Positions 15,897-17,063 of a stretch of 29,412 nucleotides of DNA are shown here, in pieces. The position numbers and the translations under genes are program-made. The stretch is taken from IMG/VR virus record IMGVR_UViG_2617270990_000002, one strand, 5' to 3'. Below the pieces are notes generated by a model that had not been told where the DNA came from, did no database searches, and worked only from the letters and a program-made list of their open reading frames with translations. This stretch comes from a virus (lineage: Duplodnaviria; Heunggongvirae; Uroviricota; Caudoviricetes). How positions within the stretch are numbered: the first letter of the stretch is position 1; each line of letters begins with the position of its first letter.

Positions 15897-16586
15897 TTAA
15901 CCTGCGGCGCTGACAGCCACCGTAGCCACTGCCACAAAATCGCCGTCAGAAGTCATGCCCACAATGCTGACACTGCCCTGCTTCACGCCTTTCACCGTGG
16001 CCACAAGCCCGTTCAGGGTCACCGTGGCAGTCTGTGGATCTGTCGAATGCACACTGATCGCTTTGTCACTGGCTCCGTCAGGTTTTACTGTAAAGGTCAG
16101 CGTGGTGGTTGCTCCCACTTTTACACTGGCAGATGCCGGTGCCACCGTCAGCCCGGTAACGCCCACGATTTCAGTGCCTTCCTCTGCCAGATACGGACGC
16201 CCCACACCGCTGATTTTCACTGTGCGGGTCATCACGTCTTTTGAGGCAATGGTTTTACCCAGTGAACTCAGCCAGCCACGGAAAACATCAACAGTACCGT
16301 TGGGATATTTGATACGAAAAGCGCAGACTTCACCGGAGTCGAACAACTGAACCAGTTTTTTCTGCCCGCTGTCCCCCGGACGCCAGGCCAGCGTCGCCGA
16401 AGTATCACCGACTGATTTCTGCCCCTGGGTTGTCGTTTTCCAGTCTGCATTTTCATCATCGAGATAAGTGTCATCTTCTGCATCAGCGGTCATTTCGCCA
16501 GGTTGCAGATCCTTCACCATCGCAAGACGCAGCCAGTCAGTGTCCGATAAAGGGTTCGCAAACGCATCGCCCTTGCCGGTATACAT
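15897..16586 (-). CDS. V: lambda V-like major tail protein with C-terminal Ig-like domain; N-terminus apparently frameshifted
   Basis: ...KGAGTTFWMYTGKGDAFANPLSDTDW...YLDDENADW...NGTVDVFRGW... matches lambda V; V-like homology continues upstream of the first in-frame ATG to the U stop codon, while a strong SD+ATG (16637-16639) sits one base out of frame. Confidence 0.8.
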   Translation of the reverse strand: MYTGKGDAFANPLSDTDWLRLAMVKDLQPGEMTADAEDDTYLDDENADWKTTTQGQKSVGDTSATLAWRPGDSGQKKLVQLFDSGEVCAFRIKYPNGTVDVFRGWLSSLGKTIASKDVMTRTVKISGVGRPYLAEEGTEIVGVTGLTVAPASASVKVGATTTLTFTVKPDGASDKAISVHSTDPQTATVTLNGLVATVKGVKQGSVSIVGMTSDGDFVAVATVAVSAAG

Positions 16587-16649
16587 CCAGAACGTCGTTC
16601 CCGCACCTTTCGTTTTTGCCAGTGGATTTGGTGTGTCATTACCACCTCC

Positions 16650-17063
16650 TTAATTCGTGTACGTGATCTGGTACGTGATTTCCGCCATCGCCCAGGTGGC
16701 CATCTCATTATCACGTTGATAGTTAAAACCGAGTGGGATCAGGGTGTCGATGAGTCCGGAAAGTGCTGGTACATCATTCAGGGCCGGGAAAATGGTGCTC
16801 TCCATCCACATATCCAGCTCTGAATCCGGTGCCTGTGCCCGGATGAAGACAGCAATATGCAGAACAGCCTGCCAGTCATCTTCATCCGTCATTTTTCCGG
16901 TGTACTGAGCATCACTCAGCCACACCGCCACGGCAGGCAGTTCCTGCGCATCAACAAATGCCGGAAGCCCGTCAAAAAACGTGGCGCTGTCTCCACACTG
17001 TTCCCGAAGGCGTGCCAGTACGACCTGGCGGATTTGTGTATGTCGGTTCATCGGGTCAGCCAT
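16650..17063 (-). CDS. U: lambda U-like tail terminator protein
   Basis: 137 aa; position between Z and V and size as lambda U. Confidence 0.85.
   Translation of the reverse strand: MADPMNRHTQIRQVVLARLREQCGDSATFFDGLPAFVDAQELPAVAVWLSDAQYTGKMTDEDDWQAVLHIAVFIRAQAPDSELDMWMESTIFPALNDVPALSGLIDTLIPLGFNYQRDNEMATWAMAEITYQITYTN

Follow-up and report, generated by a model that had tools for sequence, protein, structure and literature searches.

The gene discussed here has its counterpart in V of phage λ, whose product gpV forms the tail tube from 192 copies arranged in 32 hexameric rings (PMC10721106). Residues 1-14 of gpV make up an N-loop that is flexible in the monomer and ordered in the tube, and this loop, the E-loop, and the C-terminus provide electrostatic contacts between one gpV ring and the next and between gpU and gpV (PMC8718954, PMC10721106). 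In phage T5, deletion of the N-terminus of pb6 abolishes tube formation (PMC8718954). The window analysed here, the whole 29,412-bp stretch of IMG/VR record IMGVR_UViG_2617270990_000002, is the complete contig JNSB01000064.1 of the Escherichia coli draft genome GCA_000705005.1. It carries a gene of the gpV family within the late operon of an mEp460/cdtI-type lambdoid prophage at a Qin-like locus, and we consider it highly probable that this gpV orthologue has a genuine, vertically inherited 1-bp deletion in codon 2 and that the prophage is defective.

The intact form of the protein aligns end to end with λ gpV (PDB 6P3E, 8IYK, 7T2E, and 2K4Q) over residues 1-245 (E = 3.5e-87); both have an N-terminal tube domain and a C-terminal Big_2 domain, and the N-terminus contains ...PNP...KGAGTT(L/F)W in both. 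The V of the window is a diverged homologue of the λ protein and differs from it further in that its allele cannot encode residues 1-18 from any start. Orthologues are found in the phages mEp460, cdtI, Ayreon, and phi458 and in the 247-residue ‘phage tail protein’ of the Qin locus (WP_021560209.1; E. coli NCTC9088, ETEC6335, and MS15047). Around the junction, the phages are 96-99.6% identical to the window at the nucleotide level, the closest of the complete E. coli genomes show 99.3-99.8% identity over a 17-kb block, and the synteny Z-U-V-G-T-H-M-L-K-I-J is common to the mEp460/Qin-type relatives and the window. What distinguishes the window from these relatives is the loss of one C in codon 2 of V and an Asp-to-Asn change at 16451.

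The original prediction, made from the letters of the window, held that V had lost its start through a 1-bp deletion, and nucleotide alignment with intact homologues bears this out, as exactly one base is missing. Five phage records (phi458, mEp460, Ayreon, cdtI, and 500465-3) read ATGACCACACC where the window has ATGA-CACACC; over a longer stretch, they read AATGACCACACCAAAT (ATG ACC ACA CCA, encoding M-T-T-P) against AATGA-CACACCAAAT in the window, which places the deletion in codon 2 (ACC). The base that had been proposed for insertion after ATG ACA, so as to restore an M-T-T-P-N-P-L-A start, equals the C that is missing from codon 2 in the alignment. A megablast search of the phage collection returned 17 full-length matches at 96-99.6% identity, among them mEp460, cdtI, Ayreon, phi458, Tritos, and HannyBb; 16 of the 17 cover 552-553 bases for the 551-base query, and the start is intact in all 17, as judged from the 552-553-base span or from ATGACC in the alignment. 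BLAST against three complete genomes likewise places a gap at window position 16634. The annotation of the intact gene, in the phages as in complete E. coli genomes, is a 247-residue major tail protein beginning at the same ATG. The rest of the gene is undamaged: in a tblastn search with intact V, residues 3-247 match 16634-15900 without gaps or stops at 99.6% protein identity. At the level of sequence comparison, chance is not an issue, as a defined 1-bp indel is set against about 2,000 homologous copies.

The ancestral ATG is the annotated V start in phi458, mEp460, Ayreon, cdtI, and E. coli NCTC9088, ETEC6335, and MS15047. It follows, after a 5-nucleotide spacer, a strong Shine-Dalgarno sequence (core GGAGG, 16645-16649) that is kept in phi458 and has single changes in mEp460, Ayreon, and cdtI. 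Both elements had been described correctly from the sequence, as had the different frame of the ATG and the run of V-like codons that directly follows the U stop with no start before the methionine at 16586 (Met19 of the 247-residue protein). U ends in ...T-Y-T-N-TAA (TAA, 16652-16650); beyond this stop, the same frame reads GGGNDTPNPLAKTKGAGTTFW up to Met19, and translation of the window gives no in-frame ATG, GTG, or TTG between the U stop and that residue. The V-like sequence (...TPNPLAKTKGAGTTFWMYTGKGDAF...), for which the earlier comparison with λ V agrees with the gpV sequence in the PDB, lies in a frame other than that of the ancestral ATG and in the same frame as U; U and the V body now share one frame because of the 1-bp deletion. 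The open reading frame (ORF) that starts at the ancestral ATG begins MTHQIHWQKRK..., crosses Met19, and terminates at a TGA (16516-16514). No Shine-Dalgarno sequence lies at a usable distance from Met19, the nearest purine-rich stretch being GGGA, 12 nucleotides upstream.

Other routes into the V frame were considered and rejected. The CTG at 16622-16620 is in frame, but it stands 20 nucleotides from the Shine-Dalgarno sequence, and CTG initiates translation very poorly. Read-through of the U stop to give a U-V fusion is implausible, since TAA followed by G is an efficient stop. We also note that, in ATGGTGA (16520-16514), the TGA of the 41-codon ORF overlaps an in-frame ATG-GTG of V (Met41-Val42). 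This layout could permit termination-reinitiation, the product of which would lack 40 N-terminal residues, and it is probably coincidental. The features of the locus are collected in Table 1.

Table 1. Features of the V locus and its surroundings, in coordinates of the whole window; the U and V features lie on the minus strand.
Feature	Position	Strand	Remarks
1-bp deletion site	16634..16635	(-)	ATG ACC ACA -> ATG AC- ACA; one C of the CC pair gone (GG -> G on the plus strand)
Ancestral V start ATG	16637..16639	(-)	Still present, in a frame other than that of the V body
Shine-Dalgarno sequence AAGGAGGTGG of the ancestral V start	16642..16651	(-)	Read from the sequence; overlaps the U stop
Orphaned V codons 3-18, TPNPLAKTKGAGTTFW	16587..16634	(-)	V frame kept, without a start codon; equivalent to the λ gpV N-loop and the start of strand beta-1
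Longest remaining V ORF	15897..16586	(-)	229 residues, from Met19 of the 247-residue protein; lacks residues 1-18
Out-of-frame ORF of 41 codons, MTHQIHWQKRKVRERRSGCIPARAMRLRTLYRTLTGCVLRW	16514..16639	(-)	From the ancestral ATG; translation and ORF list (ORF 16514-16714)
Linked non-synonymous V change GAT -> AAT (Asp to Asn)	16451	(-)	In all deletion carriers; numbering by alignment to gpV
Tail terminator gene U	16650..17063	(-)	137-residue ORF; PF06141 Phage_tail_U, 203.7 bits
Mu-like prophage	368-7957		Repressor ORF 7166-7711, Ner-like helix-turn-helix gene, MuA 4661-6748, MuB 3646-4587, Gam, and others
Insertion sequence (IS) transposase ORF	28430-29380		Right end of the window (26340-29412 non-Qin)

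It had been left undecided whether the missing base reflects a genuine inactivating mutation or a sequencing error; the first is upheld and the second set aside. At the DNA level, the identical deletion was confirmed in 10 further samples that had been sequenced and assembled independently; these comprise isolates and gut metagenomes: the assemblies GCA_030511505.1, GCA_030003495.1, GCA_044394545.1, and GCA_026324055.1; the metagenome assemblies ERZ28657212 and ERZ4561120 (Hadza gut); the Logan run assemblies SRR32301706, ERR3317654, and ERR6226097; and IMG genome 2603880148. Within the protein collection, the exact 229-residue product appears in 40 indexed blocks; it comes from at least 19 contigs and bears several NCBI accessions. 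The allele is nevertheless rare. The junction is present in 1,832 complete E. coli genomes, not one of which matches the 81-mer of its deletion form exactly; an exact-pattern scan of GTDB representative genomes gave no match, which indicates rarity only; and, in IMG/VR, the intact string has more than 120 matches and the deletion string has one.

A base-by-base comparison with ETEC6335 and MS15047, which are about 99.6% identical to the window, shows the V deletion to be the sole indel at 9100-24800 (about 16 kb of coding sequence), and the other late genes, from I to the DUF1441 gene on the small-terminase side, are full length without stops. An error-prone assembly was rejected as the cause on the ground that no other coding indel exists at 9100-24800. 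The difference from NCTC9088 at 21196 is that strain's own T5/T6 homopolymer change, its portal gene being annotated ‘frameshifted’, and the window agrees there with ETEC6335 and MS15047. The recurrence of the deletion in 10 samples, its linkage to seven single-nucleotide polymorphisms (SNPs), and its standing as the sole indel in about 16 kb lead us to regard it as a genuine heritable mutation.

The linkage emerged from a comparison of the carriers with 120 intact-start IMG/VR loci and the three nearest complete genomes. All carriers share the bases of the window at 11696, 15731, 16451, 18331, 18500, 20299, and 21566, seven sites spread over 10 kb, and the full haplotype is found in none of the 120 intact-start loci and in none of the three genomes. 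Carriers and window are separated by just 2-14 SNPs over 15.7 kb, with the exception of one carrier that has a recombinant patch in the J/I/K region. As judged from these haplotypes, the deletion allele arose once and marks a shallow clade. It had been pointed out that intact homologues with the same DNA at this position would speak against a lost start; the records with the same DNA all belong to this one clade and are not independent functional homologues. One of the seven linked sites lies in V itself. The Asp-to-Asn change at 16451 falls on the residue equivalent to D64 of λ gpV, in the acidic E-loop, and D64 adjoins D61 and D62, whose mutation blocks tube growth. The change was seen with an intact start in none of the loci compared, and an 81-mer bearing it is matched at 99% or above by at most one of 1,825 complete genomes, so it is essentially confined to carriers.

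The membership of the product in the gpV family is clear. The 229-residue ORF matches PF16461 (Phage_TTP_12) with 220.4 bits (cut-off 26.1) over profile positions 2-135 of 135, and the intact orthologue scores 222.9 bits; the C-terminal immunoglobulin-like domain, PF02368 (Big_2), scores 44.5 bits (cut-off 22.8) over residues 143-223. In the window and all relatives, the gene order Z-U-V-G-T-H places V between U and the chaperones G/T, upstream of the tape-measure gene. A complete frame of the gpV family is absent, with the ATG out of frame and no in-frame start before Met19, and, on this reading of the sequence, the locus is a pseudogene or at best a truncated allele. Annotation pipelines accept the 229-residue ORF because the Pfam model begins at residue 18 and the core domain is kept. 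In the alignment with λ, residues 1-18 are strongly conserved.

The deletion parts the V reading frame from its only ribosome-binding site and start codon. Ribosomes that load at the strong Shine-Dalgarno sequence and ATG would make the 41-residue out-of-frame peptide, pass over Met19, and terminate 70 nucleotides beyond it, so that internal initiation at Met19 would be both unassisted by a Shine-Dalgarno sequence and occluded. Little or no V protein should be made, because Met19 has no Shine-Dalgarno sequence and ribosomes cross it in another frame. Any product that did start at Met19 would be without its first 18 residues; these comprise the N-loop and the beginning of beta-1, through which neighbouring rings, and likewise U and V, make contact in λ. 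The prophage would thus be unable to build tail tubes, and the tail-tube gene is most likely null or severely hypomorphic.

Several considerations weigh against so firm a view. The loss of V expression and function is something we infer from the sequence. The 229-residue ORF keeps the full Phage_TTP_12 core, so a truncated product, were any made, could still fold. Several carriers keep every other late gene intact, including a full-length J, which fits a recent mutation and would also fit continued selection. The isolated SNPs private to carriers (seven non-synonymous and four synonymous) are near the neutral expectation, but there are too few of them to establish that selection is relaxed. 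The retained tube core, together with Big_2, and the intact late genes of several carriers also speak for a functional V that is translated from Met19 as a 229-residue protein and assembles tail tubes, and gene callers and NCBI do annotate such a protein. We nonetheless think this very unlikely. Quite apart from the unfavourable surroundings of Met19, where upstream ribosomes would traverse the codon in another frame and no Shine-Dalgarno sequence is within reach, the missing residues are conserved with λ and contact neighbouring rings and gpU, and loss of the N-terminus of T5 pb6 leaves no tube. Neither the 17 full-length phage records nor the 1,832 complete genomes include a single instance of the arrangement, and carriers gather further late-gene frameshifts. 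The 229-residue ‘protein’ of the databases is only the longest-ORF choice of gene callers.

A different proposal accepts that the tail tube is lost and holds that the loss was selected, to disarm the prophage while cargo or other late functions stay. The allele persists in isolates and metagenomes of several sources, and the late region is bordered by cargo genes of the cold-shock and gnsB/ynfN types. This adaptive inactivation strikes us as a slim prospect, as the clade is so shallow (2-14 SNPs in 15.7 kb) that persistence needs no selection, the allele is rare and missing from all 1,832 complete genomes, and the later lesions are scattered as neutral decay predicts.

More doubtful still is the notion that ribosomes slip by -1 on the A-run (CAA AAA C, 16618-16612) or on A-AAG (16610-16607) to make a low level of near-full-length V with its N-terminal 8-10 residues rewritten. 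Were it so, the prophage would be leaky for tail production, which would explain why the other late genes are intact in several carriers. The shift of -1 is the one needed, and the lysine-codon A-runs, 7-10 codons past the ATG, allow exact re-pairing of tRNA-Lys; single-tRNA sites of this kind slip at low frequency in E. coli. However, the zero frame contains no X XXY YYZ heptamer, and the downstream RNA does not fold unusually well (z = +0.83; 160 of 200 shuffles fold at least as well). The A-run is identical in the intact alleles and is therefore not selected for slippage. Percent-level V would not supply the 192 copies of a λ tail, the two-frame arrangement is limited to one shallow clade, and the carriers keep decaying. 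A programmed frameshift (recoding) site was rejected on similar grounds: the two-frame layout is seen in none of the 1,832 complete genomes, the 17 phage records, or the 120 IMG/VR loci, and there is neither a heptamer nor a stimulatory structure. The programmed -1 frameshift between G and T of λ-like phages belongs to the same operon, two genes downstream of V, and shares the two-frame layout near a gene boundary, but it is conserved across the family, whereas the layout at V is peculiar to a single shallow clade and lacks both a heptamer and a stimulatory structure.

It is hardly credible that the strain truly reads ATG ACC ACA and that the contig dropped one C: the window comes from a draft-assembly contig, has a private T8-to-T7 homopolymer difference in gnsB, and has no counterpart with the deletion among complete genomes, but the 10 other samples stem from different projects and assemblers, two metagenomes among them, the linkage to seven SNPs over 10 kb is perfect, a site-specific artefact would fall randomly among the approximately 2,000 intact copies instead of tracking a haplotype, and the site is a run of only two bases that holds the sole indel in about 16 kb of coding sequence.

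We return to the codon-2 deletion as a heritable lesion of a decaying prophage and to its setting. Homology of the window to Qin-type prophages spans 7957-26339, and the late operon of the relatives is flanked by cspI, cspB, cspF, ydfT, essD, rrrQ, rzpQ, ynfN, and gnsB. The J-like tail-tip gene of the window is cut at about residue 576 of 1137 (ORF 7945-9684), where the end of the Mu-like prophage adjoins (junction at about 7945-7957). Past ynfN (26339) lie a P2-like ogr, late-control D, and tail-sheath fragments (about 26357-28212). In the carrier loci L133, L134, L136, and L137, J is full length, and lom and the usual flank with cspI come after it; the ogr junction is present in L138, L139, and L141 and missing from L133, L134, L136, L137, and L140. 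The V deletion is older than the Mu-like insertion and the ogr junction because other carriers lack those events.

Further damage has accumulated within the clade. L137 and L140 have an extra 1-bp deletion in the tape-measure gene (equivalent to 13924), which in L140 is split into 439 and 580 residues, and L141 has an extra 1-bp deletion in the DUF2190/decoration gene (equivalent to 18138), split into 35 and 74 residues. As far as the sequences show, the clade keeps gathering late-gene lesions, the pattern to be expected of a defective prophage once selection on it is relaxed. The events form a small dated decay series: the V frameshift, then the P2-like junction, then the Mu-like insertion in J and further frameshifts. 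Cryptic lambdoid prophages such as Qin share the chromosomal neighbourhood of the relatives and decay in the same manner, by point frameshifts and insertion of mobile elements; the copy in the window differs in that its late operon is still nearly complete, so its decay is at an early stage.

In kind, this frameshift pseudogene is already known. Both its family and its setting, a decaying E. coli lambdoid prophage, are familiar, and its truncated V product is already in public databases. Entries for the 229-residue remnant include EOM3721217.1, a ‘phage tail protein’, and a ‘phage major tail 2 family protein’ of E. coli 3-475-03_S4_C2. These entries represent the remnant of a frameshifted 247-residue gene and should be flagged as pseudogenes; prophage-completeness predictors would wrongly score the late operon as intact. 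The main value of the finding is this correction of annotation, and it opens no new biological question. The deletion allele is also a handy clonal marker for one sub-lineage of Qin-site prophages.

Some minor features of the locus and its carriers may be added. U homologues are annotated from an internal ATG as proteins of 133 residues, and U of the window is 100% identical to that of ETEC6335. In otherwise near-identical carriers, SNPs are clustered in L137 (9130-10457 equivalent), L136 (10591-10795), and L142 (22422-22518); as sequence patterns, these clusters point to short recombinant segments within J/I/K, K, and the large terminase gene, respectively. The gnsB gene of the window (about 25706-25875) has a T8-to-T7 frameshift at about 25812, which reduces it to 43 residues compared with 57 in other carriers; the change is seen in this contig alone and could, in contrast to the V deletion, be a sequencing error in a homopolymer. 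Two further differences, at 12628 and 14867, give Gly838 and Pro92 in the tape-measure protein, where every other carrier and non-carrier examined has Val and Thr.

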